DNA of 64,000 nt from a virus. Taxonomy: Duplodnaviria; Heunggongvirae; Uroviricota; Caudoviricetes. The DNA is taken from IMG/VR virus record IMGVR_UViG_2703718815_000003; one strand, 5' to 3'. Shown one piece after another: positions 1 through 6,329 of this stretch. The translations under genes were made by a program, and so were the position numbers. The notes under the pieces are model-generated. The model saw only the letters and a list, made by a program, of their open reading frames with translations, did not search any database and was not told the DNA's origin. How positions within the stretch are numbered: position 1 is the stretch's first letter; each line of letters opens with the position of its first letter.

Positions 1-896
1 AGCCGCTGTTTTTGAGCCTGCCGCAGCCGAGGCGCTCTGTCCCGCTGCCGTTTCAGAAGACCTGGCGTTCGTCTCGGACGTTTTTGCCGCCTTCGCGGAA
101 TTTCCTGCCGCCGTTGCCGAGGAAGCGGCATTACTGGCGCTCGAGGCTGCGCTCGTTTCTGATGATTTCGCTGCCTCTTTTGAGGCCGCCGCATCCCGGG
201 CTGAGGTGGCAGCTTCTGACGCCTTCGTGGTCGCGGTGGATGCAGAAGTGGCTGCAGATTTTTGTGACGCTGCAGCATTCGTTTCAGATTTTTTCGCAGC
301 AGTTGCACTCGCACTTGCGGCACTTTGTGAGGATGCCGCAGCGGATGCACTTTGAGACGCTTGAGAGGCTTTTTCTCCAGCGGCATTGGCGCTTTTTGCT
401 GCTGCGGCAGCACTGGCCGCCGCCTCACGAGCTTTGTCGCCAGCAGCATCAATCGCGTCAGTGTTATTTTTATACCACTCAACGTTTTCGTTGTGCTCGT
501 TGACGATCTGCATTAGCGGCTTAACGGTCACTTCTGTACCGTCTTCACGCTCGATTGTCACCTCATCCAGCGCAGTCAACCAACTGCGTATGGACTTGGA
601 ATCAGCCGACATACGCGACATTAGCGCAGTAAAGCGCGCGCTAAACTGTGTTAAGTCGCCTTCATAGGTCGTAATGATTCGGCACGGAACTTCAGACTGA
701 GTTTCGCCGGTATAAGGTTCTGAGAGAACAATGTTCGTATCACTGGTTACGCGCTTGATCTCATACAGCTTATTGTCGGGGCCAATGACGATCATCCCCG
801 GCAACACACCATTAGCTGTTACGTTCCAGGCTGTCCCTGCCCCAACCAGAGTATTGCTGCCCTGTGTAAATGTGATAGTACCTTCCTTGTACCACA
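1..896 (-). CDS. tail fibre protein, partial (runs off window start)
   Basis: Hand translation of minus strand from ATG at 894-896 gives MWYKEGTITFTQGSNTLVGAGTAWNV... then Ala/Ser-rich low-complexity repeats; AAGGAG about 8 nt upstream. Absent from ORF track because no stop inside window. Confidence 0.55.
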
Positions 897-990
897 TGTT
901 GAATATGCTCCTTGATTTGGCGGGCTATCCTTGCCCGCCATTAAGTAAATACTTACCTATTTTTACCGATATAAAATTTTTTTTCCACCA

Positions 991-3900
991 TCACAGACGG
1001 CCAATTCTTACTCGTAAGACGTTGTTATCGTCATAAACGTCAATCCGCTGACCATTTATAACCAATCGCCCATTGCCGCCGCTATTACCGTTGATCTCAA
1101 GCGTTCCATTTTTGCCGAACCGCCATCCAGATCTACCGCTAACAAAATTGGTAGATTGCAGATCGCCTACTTTTGCATTGGTGATTGTGCCATCCTTGAT
1201 ATACGCTCCATTCATATAGGCGATACTGTTTTCGATAACAAATGGCGTTGTGATCTTCCCGTTAACAGAGTTGACCAAACCAAACCTGTCCGCCTGAACC
1301 AAAAACTGAGATAGCCCAGTGGTGTCAATACCAAGCGCAATACCGGCAACATACTTCTGCCCTCCGCTCGTTGAAGTCTCCATTTTCAACGTCCACGCGG
1401 TTGACACTTTTTTGTTGGTATCAGCAATAGCTGTTGCCTGCTGTTGAATTGTCGCGGTATTTCCATTCACCTCTGCTTTCAGAGTATCGATTCGCCCACT
1501 CAGAGCATTATCTGCCTGCGTTCTCGCTTTCGTTTCAGTTGTGACCGCCGCGGAAATGTTGGCTGCCGTTTGAGACTCTAAGTTTGTGATTTGAGTCGCC
1601 AATGCAGCATCTTGCTCTGTACGCGTTTTCGTTTCGGTTGCTACAGCAGCTTTAATATCCTCTTTGTATTGAGAGGTCAGCTTGGTGATCTGAGACGACA
1701 ACGCCGAGTCAGCATCAGTTCGAGCCTGCGTTTCAACTGCAACGGCCGCACTAATATCTTTCGCTGTCTGTGCTTTTAAACTTGAAACCTCTTTTGTTAA
1801 AGCGGTATCACCATCTGCACGAGCCGTTGTTTCTCTGGCAAGAGACGCCTTGAGATCATTAGCTTTTGCTGTAAGAGACGTAATCTGGGTAGACAATGCA
1901 CTATCGGCATCAGTCCTTGCTTTTGTCTCTACAGCAACCGCTGCGGCAATATCAGTTCCGGTTTGTGCTCGCAGGCTGTTAATTTCTCGTGAGAGCGCCT
2001 GGTCAGCACTTGCTCTGGCCTCCTGCTCCTGAGTGATGGCAGCGGATATATCACCGTCAACCTTTGACTGAAGCTGGTTTATTTGTTTGGCTAACGCAGA
2101 GTCCCCGCTTGCTCGGGCCTCCTGCTCACTACGTATTGCAGCAGAAATATCATCATCAACCTTTGCCTGAAGTTGGGTGATCTGGCTTGCCAGAGCCGAA
2201 TCTTCCGTTGCTCGGGCTTCTTGCTCTTCCTTAATAGCTGCGACGATATCGTTGCTTACTTTCGACTCAAGCTGAGTGATCTGTGTCGTCAGAGCTTCAT
2301 CGGCAGATGTACGAGCCTCCTGCTCTGTACTAATCGCCGCGCTGATATCTCCTTCAAACTTAGATTGCAGCTGAGTGACACGCTTTGCCAACGCTTCATC
2401 GCCATCGGCACGAGCGGTGGACTCTTCCAGAATACTGGCCTTAATGTCTTCGCCAATTTCTACGCGAATTTCCTCAACCTTCGTGGCCATTGCAGACATA
2501 TCATCAGCAAAGGTTTTCTGTGTTGTTGCGATCTTCGCGTTATTGACCATCTGCTTGTGCTGGTCTTCATCTTGACGAAGAGCCAGGTCAATATTTGTTT
2601 TGGCTAACGCCTCAATGTTCGTAGTCAGTTCTGCACTGGCACGATCGACCTCTGCAACCGTCTTTTTCATTTCTTCAACGGCAGCGGAGCTTTCCTCTAC
2701 CGTTGACTGCAACACTTCCAGTTGTTTAGCGTTTGCAGCATCGCCTTCAACACGAGCCTCGCTTTCCTTAGCAATAAGAGCCGCCGCTTCATCTCTTGCA
2801 GCCTTTATTGCCTCGACTGTATTAGCGAGAGCTTTATCGTGTTCAGATACGGTGTTTTCGATTTCAACAATTGCAGCATCAGTAGCATCAATTTTTTCAA
2901 ACGCTTCATTGACCTTGTCGATCGTTGCCGAAACCTCACCTTTAAGCTCGGTTTGTGCGTTCTCCAAAGCATCGCTACGCTCGTTGAATTTTATTTCAAA
3001 ATCCGCGAGGTTATCGCTGAACTGCTTATCTAATTCAGCTATATCTTCCTTAACGTCGTTTACCGCCCCCTCCAAAGATTCGACGCTCTGGTTGATATGC
3101 TCATTTAACTCGTCAACTGCTTCTTGAGAGGCTTTGCTGTTGATGTCCTCAAGCAGAGCCTGACCAAGCTCGGAAGATGTAATTTTGCCAGTCAGGAACG
3201 ACAGTACATCGCGAGTTGTCGCCTCTGTACCCAAGTTTGAGTTCGGAGGACTTAACATACCTCGCTTGTTCGATGCTCGAACCCAGTAATACCACGTTTC
3301 GCTATCCCCAAGACCAGCATGTGTAAAGGTGGTGCTTGCAGACTCTGCGATCAGTTTCGCCGTATCCAGATTGTTGGTCTGGGATGCGTAAACATTAATG
3401 TGATCAAGGTCTACCGAATCTGGATTAACCCAATTCAGTATCACATTACGATAGTCTCCAACGGCCGTTAATGACGTTGGGGAATCCGGCGGTGTCATTG
3501 TGCCCAACACCTGATAAACGGCACTGATAATCTCTGTTTTTTTACCGTTGAATGAAACCGCATACAGCTGGAAGTCGTAGCGTCCATTCTCCGCGACATT
3601 AACGATTTCGTATTGCTCTTCGGTTACACGCGCCGATTGCCAGTTCGATACATTGTTTTCATCAGAACGTCGCCAACTGATCCAATACTCTGGAGATTTC
3701 CCTTCCCATGTTGCAGTCAGTTTTACTGACAGGTTGCCCGGGCTTGAGAGATAAGTCCCTTCAGTGATTTGCAGATTAGATGGCTTGGAGTAAGTTGGGT
3801 CCAATACCGTCGTATTCTGCGGGATCAGCGTTGCACCATTGTCGATTGCCTCATATTTAGACGGATTGTTCTCAACAGCGGTGATGTCAAAGCTACCCGG

Positions 3901-5718
3901 CGTTTCCCCCTGCGCGATGTTAACGATGCGAACGCGCATAGGTTCGAGGTCTGGTTCTGTAATAGTCCAGACGCCGTTCAAAACAGGCGTTTCAGCCGAA
4001 GACAGGGCTTTTGAAAACGTAACTTTTGTTATATTTTCGCCAGTTTCAAGAACATCGCGTTCAACGATTTTGCCTTCCTGATTCAGTATTCGAATAAAGC
4101 AGCCGCCTTTGGCTAACGACACAGGCGCATCGAGTGTGACGCTGTTTTTGGTAAACGCCACAATTCGACCTGAGTTACGTTTGCCTGCGCGATATTTGTT
4201 CTGAATCAGAACGGTTTCACCAGGCATCAGAAATGACGCGTCTAAGCCGGCAGTAAATGTAATTACATCCGACTCCATTCTGGCGGTATATAAAAGCCAC
4301 AAACCAACTCGGTGAGCCTGCCCTCGGCTTGTACAGCCAAATGCTACGACTTCTGTCTTACGTTCACCATAACGGCGCATTGCGTCCTGATCTTCAACGT
4401 ACTCGATGTTTTGCTTATAACCGTCCTCCTTGTTGTTGTAGGTTACGAGCGCAACGGATGGGCGATCTTTACGCGCAGAACCTTTATAGGTAAACAATCC
4501 ATCTTTGACGTTAGAGTTGGTAAACATCATTACCGGATCTGATGGGCTATCCTGCATGATGTTAACCATGCCACCAGCCCAAAACACCATACCGCGGAAT
4601 GCACCGGCAATATCCTGAATTAATCGGTATGCGTCCTGTCGACTGGTGATCTGCGTATTGATTGCAAAGCGTTTCTCTTTGCCACCAAAGCCATCATCGA
4701 CCTCTTCGTCACAATATCGACCAATCTGGTACAACTGGCCAAGGTCAATCATAGATTCCGACACATACTGACCAAGGCCATATCGAGCATTGGTCAGCAA
4801 ATCAAAGAGAATCCACGCGGGGTTTGAAGAAGACAACAGCTTAAAAGTGCCATCCCATACACCATCATAAGTGTTGCTGGCCTCGTTGTAGTTTGACGGC
4901 ACGCGAATTTTTAATCCACGTACCAAATACGAACGAGATGGCATGGTGCTACCAAACTGCTCAGAATTAACCTTCAGACCCACCAGCACAGAGTTTGGGT
5001 AGTTCATCGGTGTATCTACAATCTCACCTATTGAGTCCACCCATGTATCGTTATAGAGATACTGGCTGCTGTTATCATCGGTAATACGGACTACACGAAC
5101 CTTGTACGCGCGTCCAGGCTTAGGCAGCTTCAGCTCATAGCTACGGTAATAAACACCTGTCTTCTTTGCTGTTAGCTTAATGCCAACGCTTTTTTCACCT
5201 TCTGCGACCACATCTACAAATGTTGAGTCGCCATTTGCTATCTGGAACTTGTACTCAACAGTCGTACCGTTCGTGTCACCAGTTTTTTTATCTATGCTTC
5301 GCAAAGAAGGAAACTTCATGATGACACGAACCCGATCAGCTTCATCGTTATCGATTGAAACCGTTACATAATGTGTTTTTTTTAACTGGATATTGACGGA
5401 TTTAGGCGTTTCAACGAAATCAAAGCCAGACATTGGAGTCTGGTCTTGTGAACCGTCGCGAAAATCCCATGTGATTCCGCTGAAGTTGGAGGAACCGTCT
5501 TCATTTACAATCGGCAGATCGTCGATAAAAATAGATCTTGCGCCATTTACTAAGCCGCCAATTACCCCTTCCCCAAGAAGATCGAGGATAGCGGCCATTG
5601 CACGAGAATTTACGGTATCGTCGGCTTCAACCGGTGTACGGCTGGAGCTTTTGCTGCTTTTTTTACCACCCGCACCGGCAATAAACAGCGGTAGCTTTTT
5701 CTTCTTGAACTGTTCCAT
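991..5718 (-). CDS. central tail fibre / host specificity protein (lambda gpJ-like)
   Basis: About 1575 aa; position after I-like gene; long coiled-coil repeat region and distinct C-terminal domain. ORF-track start at 5724 is TTG; first ATG at 5716-5718 has AAGGA upstream. Confidence 0.8.
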   Translation of the reverse strand: MEQFKKKKLPLFIAGAGGKKSSKSSSRTPVEADDTVNSRAMAAILDLLGEGVIGGLVNGARSIFIDDLPIVNEDGSSNFSGITWDFRDGSQDQTPMSGFDFVETPKSVNIQLKKTHYVTVSIDNDEADRVRVIMKFPSLRSIDKKTGDTNGTTVEYKFQIANGDSTFVDVVAEGEKSVGIKLTAKKTGVYYRSYELKLPKPGRAYKVRVVRITDDNSSQYLYNDTWVDSIGEIVDTPMNYPNSVLVGLKVNSEQFGSTMPSRSYLVRGLKIRVPSNYNEASNTYDGVWDGTFKLLSSSNPAWILFDLLTNARYGLGQYVSESMIDLGQLYQIGRYCDEEVDDGFGGKEKRFAINTQITSRQDAYRLIQDIAGAFRGMVFWAGGMVNIMQDSPSDPVMMFTNSNVKDGLFTYKGSARKDRPSVALVTYNNKEDGYKQNIEYVEDQDAMRRYGERKTEVVAFGCTSRGQAHRVGLWLLYTARMESDVITFTAGLDASFLMPGETVLIQNKYRAGKRNSGRIVAFTKNSVTLDAPVSLAKGGCFIRILNQEGKIVERDVLETGENITKVTFSKALSSAETPVLNGVWTITEPDLEPMRVRIVNIAQGETPGSFDITAVENNPSKYEAIDNGATLIPQNTTVLDPTYSKPSNLQITEGTYLSSPGNLSVKLTATWEGKSPEYWISWRRSDENNVSNWQSARVTEEQYEIVNVAENGRYDFQLYAVSFNGKKTEIISAVYQVLGTMTPPDSPTSLTAVGDYRNVILNWVNPDSVDLDHINVYASQTNNLDTAKLIAESASTTFTHAGLGDSETWYYWVRASNKRGMLSPPNSNLGTEATTRDVLSFLTGKITSSELGQALLEDINSKASQEAVDELNEHINQSVESLEGAVNDVKEDIAELDKQFSDNLADFEIKFNERSDALENAQTELKGEVSATIDKVNEAFEKIDATDAAIVEIENTVSEHDKALANTVEAIKAARDEAAALIAKESEARVEGDAANAKQLEVLQSTVEESSAAVEEMKKTVAEVDRASAELTTNIEALAKTNIDLALRQDEDQHKQMVNNAKIATTQKTFADDMSAMATKVEEIRVEIGEDIKASILEESTARADGDEALAKRVTQLQSKFEGDISAAISTEQEARTSADEALTTQITQLESKVSNDIVAAIKEEQEARATEDSALASQITQLQAKVDDDISAAIRSEQEARASGDSALAKQINQLQSKVDGDISAAITQEQEARASADQALSREINSLRAQTGTDIAAAVAVETKARTDADSALSTQITSLTAKANDLKASLARETTARADGDTALTKEVSSLKAQTAKDISAAVAVETQARTDADSALSSQITKLTSQYKEDIKAAVATETKTRTEQDAALATQITNLESQTAANISAAVTTETKARTQADNALSGRIDTLKAEVNGNTATIQQQATAIADTNKKVSTAWTLKMETSTSGGQKYVAGIALGIDTTGLSQFLVQADRFGLVNSVNGKITTPFVIENSIAYMNGAYIKDGTITNAKVGDLQSTNFVSGRSGWRFGKNGTLEINGNSGGNGRLVINGQRIDVYDDNNVLRVRIGRL
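1480..2450 (-). repeat. intragenic tandem repeats of about 100 bp (about 34-aa coiled-coil units) inside J-like gene
   Basis: Recurring DNA units (e.g. gctcgggcctcctgctc about every 100 bp) and protein units DISAAI..EQEARA..D.AL..QI..L. Confidence 0.6.
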
Positions 5719-5735
5719 GTTCAAAAAATCCTTGT

Positions 5736-6329
5736 TTACATTAGCTGGTCAATCGTGATTGAAGAACTCACAACCTGTGAGCCAACCAGAATTTCCTCGC
5801 CATAGATAAGTTGTACTGGGTTGCCCTGGTTTTCTGTATTTTGAGGGCCGTCGAAATAATAAGAGTTCGAGTTATCTGCCTGTCTCACACTTTCGTTAGT
5901 GGCTTGCGGCGATATGATTTGTGATATGCCGCCCATCATCAGTGACAAACCGAGAGGTGCTAAAGCAGGCATCACTACCGCCGATACAACCAACAAAGCG
6001 GCCCCTACTACCGTCTGAAACCACCCAAAAGCAGATCCACCGCTTCCTCGCGGAACAGGTGTAATGCGGATTTTGGCAATGTTGTCAGACTGCCCCATCA
6101 TCTGATATTCACTTTCGTCAACAGACCACTTGTGGCCCTGTTTATTGGTGATCTGGATGTGGTAACGGTCATAGGTTTTGATATTGCGCTTCATCCATGC
6201 TTTAAACCCAGGCTTGTTGGCCTCAATTAAATCCAGAGCCTGTTTTGTATTGCGCACCTTTAGATGCCAGTGGCGGCCAAAATGTTTGGCCATAGGGCCG
6301 CCAAGCTGCACATGAACTAACTCAGACAC
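5736..6329 (-). CDS. tail assembly protein (lambda gpI-like)
   Basis: 197 aa; hydrophobic central segment, Gly/Pro-rich C-terminus; position between K-like and J-like genes. Confidence 0.55.
   Translation of the reverse strand: MSELVHVQLGGPMAKHFGRHWHLKVRNTKQALDLIEANKPGFKAWMKRNIKTYDRYHIQITNKQGHKWSVDESEYQMMGQSDNIAKIRITPVPRGSGGSAFGWFQTVVGAALLVVSAVVMPALAPLGLSLMMGGISQIISPQATNESVRQADNSNSYYFDGPQNTENQGNPVQLIYGEEILVGSQVVSSSITIDQLM

Follow-up and report, generated by a model that had tools for sequence, protein, structure and literature searches.

The energy source by which non-contractile tails open their tip and cross the cell envelope is an old question, and the closest described systems to the one considered here are the central fibres of F-type pyocins. 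In the F7 pyocin, receptor engagement by the tip converts a metastable coiled coil of the fibre into a beta-prism; by this change the tip is opened and the tape measure protein expelled (He et al., 2026; PMC12874032). The strands of F-type pyocin central fibres share the motif SxSxxMxxLxS in alternating orientation, with an acidic residue at M often paired with Arg at ±4, and replacement by Gln of small residues packed in the prism corners abolishes killing and leaves assembly unaffected. The segment shown to switch comprises 163 residues, the non-switching region starts with a few prism strands that possibly serve as a seed, and both folds have been predicted for 21 of 24 related siphophage fibres; lambda and T5 manage without a switch of this kind (He et al., 2026). 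The F-pyocin fibre has also been described as a long trimeric alpha-helical shaft carrying side fibres (PMC13455828; 10.64898/2026.02.24.707460). Here we compare with these systems a central tail fibre gene, a homologue of lambda J, found in a 64,000-nt stretch of Caudoviricetes DNA (IMG/VR record IMGVR_UViG_2703718815_000003; the whole stretch is referred to as the window), whose shaft is encoded by an array of ten tandem units.

We consider it fairly probable that this array forms a modular, probably metastable trimeric shaft homologous to that of the F-type pyocins and bearing the fold-switch signature, the switch being proposed from homology and from the motif. A literature search for hendecad or tandem-repeat descriptions of such fibres returned nothing specific, and the words repeat, heptad and hendecad are not used by He et al. 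(2026; PMC12874032), where SSU5, a relative of the studied element, is not mentioned either. The tandem-unit view and the series of unit numbers appear to be additions to that work, not contradictions of it, the unit-wise organization being a modest one.

The J-like gene and its tandem array

The sole long open reading frame (ORF) of the region occupies positions 991–5724 on the minus strand, as do all J features given below, and encodes 1577 amino acids (aa) starting from TTG at 5724. Annotated homologues begin at MEQF, that is, at ATG at 5718, and their numbering is 2 lower than the one used here. Judging by its translation, Pfam and PHROG matches, the product belongs to the lambda-J-like central tail fibre (tail tip) proteins and is called J below. 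The Pfam domains are FNIII-A_GpJ (aa 104–238, E-value 1.5e-29), Phage-tail_3 (360–523, 1e-35), fn3 (647–730) and Phage_Tail_Tip (PF09327; 1425–1559, 1.3e-41), and both PHROG 31 ("central tail fiber J") and PHROG 2589 are matched with E = 0. The NCBIfam model lambda_TipJ (NF049904) yields 523 bits against the cut-off of 1950 and covers aa 25–943 only; J is a homologue, not an equivalog, of lambda TipJ.

A profile of the unit identifies ten consecutive full units at J aa 1107–1435 (1420–2406), with E-values of individual units from 1e-13 to 1e-19; nine units are 33 aa (99 nt) long, and one is 32 aa (96 nt) long. The profile and the alignment separate units 1–4 of type A, ending with EQEARA or EQEART (2011–2406: 2308–2406, 2209–2307, 2110–2208, 2011–2109), from units 5–9 of type B, ending with ETKART (1519–2010: 1912–2010, 1816–1911, which is the 32-aa unit, 1717–1815, 1618–1716, 1519–1617). 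Unit 10, QADNALSGRIDTLKAEVNGNTATIQQQATAIAD (1420–1518), is of the terminal type Z, assigned from the unit alignment and structure models. Five positions, D3, A5, L6, L13, and A23, are invariant in the alignment of ten units, and E28, A31, and R32 are nearly so. Alanine accounts for 67 of the 329 residues of the array, which is also rich in Thr and Ser.

The array is preceded by a degenerate unit 0, SAMATKVEEIRVEIGEDIKASILEESTARA (aa 1077–1106, 2407–2496; profile score 14 bits, E = 2e-5), and, further upstream, by a proximal helical shaft outside the array (aa 860–1076, 2497–3147), which is proline-free, has a hydrophobic period of 3.56 residues, lies outside both structure models, and retains weak relics of the unit at aa 962–1017 according to the profile. 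It is followed by a beta-rich C-terminal tip (aa 1436–1577, 994–1419) with the Phage_Tail_Tip "central straight fibre" domain, and by the J stop codon at 991–993. The tip is supported by Pfam, by sequence matches to Protein Data Bank (PDB) entries for T1 gp33 (9l9p_S), F2-pyocin fibre (25vf_A), and lambda gpJ (residues 840–971), and by Foldseek matches to SU10 (7z4b_EA) and lambda gpJ (8xcj, 8xci). In the Foldseek comparison of the model with PDB the tip domain alone was matched, and F-pyocin entries were absent among the matches listed.

The repeats do exist, but they are old and have diverged. Protein self-identity equals 0.36 at the lag of 33 aa, 0.30 at 66, and 0.24 at 99, and does not exceed 0.19 at other lags. 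The mean pairwise identity of units is 50% for nucleotides (range 32–71%) and 45% for amino acids, the closest pair being units 3 and 4 (71 and 76%, respectively), and the longest in-register exact run common to any two units is 12 nt. As the units share about half of their nucleotides and at most 12 consecutive bases, Tandem Repeats Finder (TRF) detects only 2.2 copies at 2009–2226, with 76% matches, corresponding to units 3–4; an ungapped repeat finder reports four copies with 62–72% identity. Hence the array is properly visible only at the protein level. Pfam search with the shaft alone yielded sub-threshold matches to unrelated coiled-coil families (SF-assemblin and others), and no curated family for the unit.

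An earlier, preliminary description of this DNA had suggested about ten near-identical repeats encoding 34-aa coiled-coil units at 1480–2450 in the central tail fibre gene. The array in this gene near the suggested place is confirmed by the lag-33 identity, the profile and the domain assignments, and so are the number of units and, from the hydrophobic periodicity and structure models, their coiled-coil type. The suggested span overlaps most of the array, its start being about 60 nt short and its end about 45 nt too long. The unit proved to be one residue shorter than supposed, and the units are far from near-identical. The TRF check proposed in that description did detect a repeat, but recovered a minor part of it.

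Helical character and structure models

There is no proline in J aa 860–1435. Hydrophobicity of the array peaks at a period of 3.65 residues, close to 33/9 = 3.67, with the power of 122 compared to 32 ± 13 in shuffled sequences (maximum 100), whereas the power at the heptad period of 3.50 is only 1.4, and thus the array is not a canonical heptad coiled coil. The core of the unit is formed by L6/I10/L13, V17/I21/A24, and E28/R32/A2, that is, three hendecad-like layers with 4–3–4 spacing, giving nine helical turns per 33 residues.

Two AlphaFold2 monomer models both contain a single continuous helix at aa 1092–1408 and beta-structure starting from aa 1410; the model obtained with an alignment of 121 sequences has pLDDT of 93–95 over units 6–9. 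In unit 10 the helix stops at aa 1408 and is followed by a beta-hairpin consisting of the strand RIDTLKAEV, the turn NGN and the strand TATIQQQATAIAD (strands at aa 1410–1419 and 1422–1434), with the turn located exactly at unit positions 18–20 and further strands after it. In its sequence unit 10 is related to the helical units, yet it is modelled as beta.

Taken together, these data provide good support for reading the array as the helical shaft, modular in build, of a J-like central fibre; the shaft is probably trimeric and metastable. An alpha-helix rises by about 0.15 nm per residue, and with this standard geometry each unit would add approximately 4.9 nm to the shaft.

The fold-switch motif and the spread of the unit family

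The motif known from fold-switching shafts of F-type pyocin central fibres is present in the units, a feature overlooked in the preliminary description. SxSxxMxxLxS has 28 matches in J aa 1077–1435, compared to 6.2 ± 2.4 in shuffled sequences. Each unit contains one forward motif at positions 5–15 (ALxxQITxLxS) and one reverse motif at positions 23–33 (AAIxxExxARA), and the degenerate unit 0 also bears one of each. The residue frequencies, calculated for 251 distinct units from about 130 proteins, are close to those published. The S positions are occupied by Ala (74%), Ser (12%), Thr (10%), and Val (2%), compared to 68, 11, 7, and 8%, respectively, in He et al. (PMC12874032), and the L positions, by Ile (40%), Leu (40%), and Val (19%), compared to 32, 33, and 25%. 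At the M positions Glu (45%) and Ile (40%) prevail. Glu28 is present in 90% and Arg32 in 92% of these units; the two residues are paired, being four residues apart. The segments between the motifs (positions 18–20 and 1–4) are rich in Asp, Asn, and Gly, with Asp at position 3 in 99% of units, Asn or Asp at position 20 in 92%, and mostly Asn, Gly, or Asp at positions 18–19.

The similarity to the pyocin fibre is not restricted to the motif. The F2-pyocin tail fibre 25vf_A (chain residues 927–1193) aligns with J aa 1277–1549, that is, with units 6–10 and the tip, at E = 1.5e-23. F-type pyocin central fibres (F7 PyoF10, F2 PA0641) also share with J the J-like hub, the FNIII domains, the long helical shaft, trimeric in the pyocins, the beta-rich tip, the motif orientation, and the Glu/Arg pairs. 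The beta-strands of unit 10, directly following the helix, agree with the "seed" strands of He et al. (PMC12874032).

The unit family is large. Of 1.84 billion cluster representatives, 672 match the ten-unit profile at E ≤ 1e-3, and 260, at E ≤ 1e-10. A search for homologous proteins returned only proteins shorter than 880 aa, many of them partial, and family counts are based on collected loci and on the representative search. In the best 136 profile matches that were new in the representative search, there are 2–21 units per protein, mostly 4–7, with the most common spacing of 32 residues (528 spacings, compared to 72 spacings of 33 residues); some arrays have spacings of 36 or 39. The longest array, 21 units at aa 1063–1831, twice the array of the window, belongs to a 2138-aa J-like protein with the same Pfam architecture; 20 of these units follow each other without interruption at 32–33-residue spacing, and one lies about 114 residues upstream.

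Comparison with central fibres of T1 and lambda

The best sequence match among solved structures is the T1 central fibre gp33 (FibA; 9l9p_S, E = 1e-30; PMC11945409), the aligned region including 33-aa units of T1 itself, followed by the same tip domain. In contrast to J, gp33 has only about three units, and two of them form a nearly perfect tandem duplication. The C-terminal residues 821–1172 of gp33 are not resolved in the structure (PMC11945409).

Lambda gpJ (8iyk, 8xcj) shares with J the N-terminal hub, the FNIII and Phage_Tail_Tip domains, and the gene position after the tail assembly gene, but lacks the unit, the best profile match being 0.4 bits. Between GKITESHLGKELL and WAVKIEQT..YVAGIGL lambda J has about 45 residues, compared to about 575 helical residues in J of the window. 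Moreover, lambda J runs on into the LamB-binding domain, whereas J of the window ends with the tip domain.

Unit number among relatives

The number of full units identified by the profile varies from 4 to 10 in the SSU5 family: ten in the window and in CMS-2020a (SCU-175), nine in the E. coli 2013C-4991 plasmid and phage PhiR41_1, six in pMT-1 of Y. pestis and an Enterobacter plasmid, five in SSU5 and the E. coli S56 plasmid, and four in pHCM2 of S. Typhi. J homologues of SSU5, pHCM2, and pMT-1 have the same gene, domain order, unit family, and A/B/Z unit types as the window. The order of types, however, is AAAABBBBBZ in the window, AABBZ in SSU5, ABBZ in pHCM2, and AABBBZ in pMT-1, so both A and B blocks have changed.

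Three independent indels have been mapped at the nucleotide level, each of exactly 99 nt. In deletion A (2056–2165), found in plasmids NZ_CP027358 and NZ_JBWDPM010000001, positions 2155–2165 of unit 3 are joined to 2056–2066 of unit 4 at about 11 shared nucleotides, producing the hybrid unit EDSALASQITQLQAKVD|GDISAAITQEQEARA. Deletion B (2001–2103), at the starts of units 4 and 5, joins 2100–2103 to 2001–2004 with 3–4 nt shared; it is carried by plasmid NZ_CP081707, whose only other difference from the window is 1 nt in 1202, and hence this deletion is recent. The third indel distinguishes PhiR41_1 from CMS-2020a and is located at an 11–12-nt shared stretch. One-unit gains occur as well, since in gene ST33 of phage T1 (NC_005833) one unit of 99 nt is duplicated in tandem almost perfectly at aa 930–995 (96 of 99 bases, exact run of 103 nt), which from its sequence looks like a very recent gain. 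The evolution of the array by whole-unit indels is therefore well supported. Microhomologies of 3–12 nt at the junctions are typical of rare illegitimate events.

Array length stability was estimated using a 1301-nt query and a spread of 60 out of 168 matching E. coli records, all of them plasmids, with relatives at least 95% identical. Among approximately 58 records covering the whole query, three show a span of 1202 nt (nine units), and the rest, 1301 nt; thus about 95% have the same array length. The exceptions in the sample were one record split by IS1 and two rows covering the query only in part. The same picture is seen in the plasmid collection. Close relatives also include NZ_CP020118 and NZ_CP024271, one with IS1 in the J gene inside the queried region, and the other with a 1303-nt span and no annotated gene, suggesting a frameshifted copy.

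Across the SSU5 family the shaft (J aa 860–1435) is 56–70% identical (56–63% for SSU5, pHCM2, and pMT-1), whereas the hub is 88–97% identical; for SSU5 and two of the E. coli phages, the identity of the tip domain is 94–96%. The shaft is the most diverged part of J, which is unusual if the tip is the main specificity determinant.

With regard to the preliminary description, the comparison of copy numbers that it proposed, with identical numbers and sequences in all relatives as the refuting case, revealed ten units in the window versus nine, six, five, and four in relatives, and so did not refute it. Its suggestion that recombination changes the fibre length agrees with the differing unit numbers and the 99-nt indels, but the divergence of the units is too great for homologous recombination to be efficient, and the term "hypervariable" does not fit the stability of array length in close relatives; it is on longer time scales that the number of units changes.

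Some homologues of J (those of pHCM2, pMT-1, E. coli S56 plasmid B, and pEh27_1) extend by 110–140 C-terminal residues beyond the tip domain, so the distal end, too, is modular; in some database relatives this extra region contains Pfam PF12421. In two SSU5-like plasmids, NZ_AP024176 from Klebsiella pneumoniae and NZ_CP062854 from E. coli O9:H10, "phage tail protein" genes are annotated with lengths of 12.7 and 11.0 kb, respectively; the last ~1750 residues of these giant J homologues have no canonical 33-aa unit, and the same tip domain is found at the end.

A possible mechanism and its alternatives

The presence of one forward and one reverse motif per unit, the Asp/Asn/Gly-rich separators, and the Glu28–Arg32 pair lead us to propose that a unit, forming nine helical turns before triggering, may become one beta-hairpin of a beta-prism afterwards. 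As in the F7 pyocin, receptor engagement by the tip would convert the metastable coiled coil to the beta-prism, for which unit 10, beta from the outset, and the tip domain would act as the seed; the shaft would become shorter, and the tail tip would open. The parallel with pyocins suggests that side fibres, too, may dock on this rod. The array itself evolves by infrequent events at short microhomologies, each adding or removing exactly one unit (99 nt), with selection retaining only in-register products.

Several considerations weigh against a fold-switching shaft. Both AlphaFold2 runs were monomeric and produced a confident helix and no beta-prism, and hence neither support nor exclude switching. 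The motif frequencies are partly circular, as the units were collected with a profile built from the window, and only their agreement with the published motif is independent. The peak of hydrophobicity at the period of 2.05 represents a harmonic of the 33-residue periodicity, and its height was attained in at least one of 500 shuffles. The F2-pyocin shaft is mostly heptad-based with a local stutter (10.64898/2026.02.24.707460), whereas the shaft of the window consists of hendecad-like 33-residue tandem units with the 3.65 period. With ten units, or about 330 residues, the array is twice as long as the stretch for which switching was demonstrated (163 residues), and SSU5-like phages are absent from the list of He et al. 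(PMC12874032). Finally, F-type pyocins are tailocins, whereas the element of the window is a complete phage-plasmid, for which switching is suggested by the sequence.

The main competing explanation, which we find rather unlikely, is a static spacer, that is, a rigid trimeric coiled-coil rod setting the reach of the tip and maybe holding side fibres, where the number of units tunes the reach through surface layers with no change of fold. It would account for the confident helix in both models and for the stepwise length variation among relatives, and is in line with the role of the F-pyocin shaft as a side-fibre platform (PMC13455828; 10.64898/2026.02.24.707460) and with lambda and T5 doing without a switch (PMC12874032). 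Still, such a rod does not need Ala, Ser, or Thr at six exposed positions of each unit, nor alternating motifs with Asp, Asn, and Gly between them, and these features are strongly conserved over 251 units; the region is homologous to a fibre of the family where the switch has been shown to be essential, and the model assigns beta-structure to one unit of this array. A hypervariable, recombination-prone repeat, in line with the preliminary description, whose frequent copy-number changes would rapidly switch host range or adsorption, is quite improbable: the difference in copy numbers among relatives, the recent origin of deletion B, and the divergence of the shaft across the family could be read in its favour, but units sharing on average half of their nucleotides and at most 12 consecutive bases, the occurrence of nine units in only three of some 58 close E. 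coli records, and junction microhomologies characteristic of rare illegitimate events all speak against it. As for a compositional artefact of low complexity rich in Ala, Ser, Thr, and Gln, with no true repeat behind it, the richness in Ala, Thr, and Ser and the mere 2.2 copies seen by TRF are what one would expect, but this explanation is already refuted by the ten in-register units with five invariant and three nearly invariant columns, by the E-values of individual units and the 672 representatives matching the profile, and by natural indels exactly one unit long.

Within the fold-switching shaft, the stronger claim that the 33-residue unit is its structural quantum, present as nine turns of helix prior to triggering and as a single beta-hairpin thereafter, is put forward tentatively, as a possibility that we regard with some doubt. 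If it is true, fibre reach and the length of the contraction stroke would both be determined by the number of units: by geometric estimate, a unit would occupy about 4.9 nm as a helix and about 1 nm as a hairpin, and ten units would contract from about 49 nm to 10 nm. The natural series of 3–21 units, found in proteins of otherwise identical architecture, would then be a ready-made experiment on the dependence of stored conformational energy and stroke on length, and the stroke might be matched to the thickness of the host surface layer.

Genomic context

Nucleotide identity is 98.5–98.9% to Escherichia phages Cyrano and CMS-2020a and 78% to Salmonella phage SSU5, and the J gene is present in hundreds of enterobacterial non-mobilizable plasmids of about 110 kb. 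Given these phage identities and the plasmid carriers of the gene, the window is a part of an SSU5-like phage-plasmid of E. coli.

J is flanked by an ORF at 5736–6329 upstream and by the N-terminus of a tail fibre gene downstream; in the annotation of close relatives, J directly follows a tail assembly gene (I) and precedes a side fibre gene. The downstream gene (1–897, minus strand; PHROG 22609 and 3299), annotated as tail fibre in SSU5, PhiR41_1, and pHCM2, encodes the first 299 aa of the side tail fibre (MWYKEGTITFTQGS...) and runs off the window start. The protein is Ala/Ser-rich with low complexity from approximately aa 150 (..AAASAAAAAKSANAAGEKASQASQSASAAASS..), and TRF finds small 12-nt and 9-nt repeats in this region, at 236–258 and 352–371. 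Its N-terminus is 60–74% identical throughout to those of SSU5, pHCM2, pMT-1, and PhiR41_1, with no clear co-variation with the shaft in this set.

A GC-rich inverted repeat, GGCGGGC-aaggata-GCCCGCC (921–941), is located between the J stop codon and the start codon of the side fibre gene. On the coding strand it is followed by no T-run, an AAGGAG ribosome-binding site lies just past it, and the terminator scan made no call there; the scan of 700–6000 for promoters and terminators yielded nothing above chance. Plus-strand ORFs in the array region (1591–1779, 1850–2032, 2173–2607, and 2600–3127) have zero PHROG matches and were treated as antisense noise.

Implications

The studied fibre is a further case of the recently described kind of shaft, and its main value is the natural series of unit numbers. 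The same shaft signature is seen, as a clean tandem array, in a common phage-plasmid family of E. coli, Salmonella, and Yersinia (SSU5, pHCM2, pMT-1). For annotation this means that a ~1-kb "repeat" in J genes of this kind is neither an assembly artefact nor a contingency locus, and the unit-wise mode of change helps to read tail-fibre length variation in genome surveys. The naturally varying number of units, in turn, offers a simple way of putting the switch model to the test in a real phage, by deleting or adding whole units.

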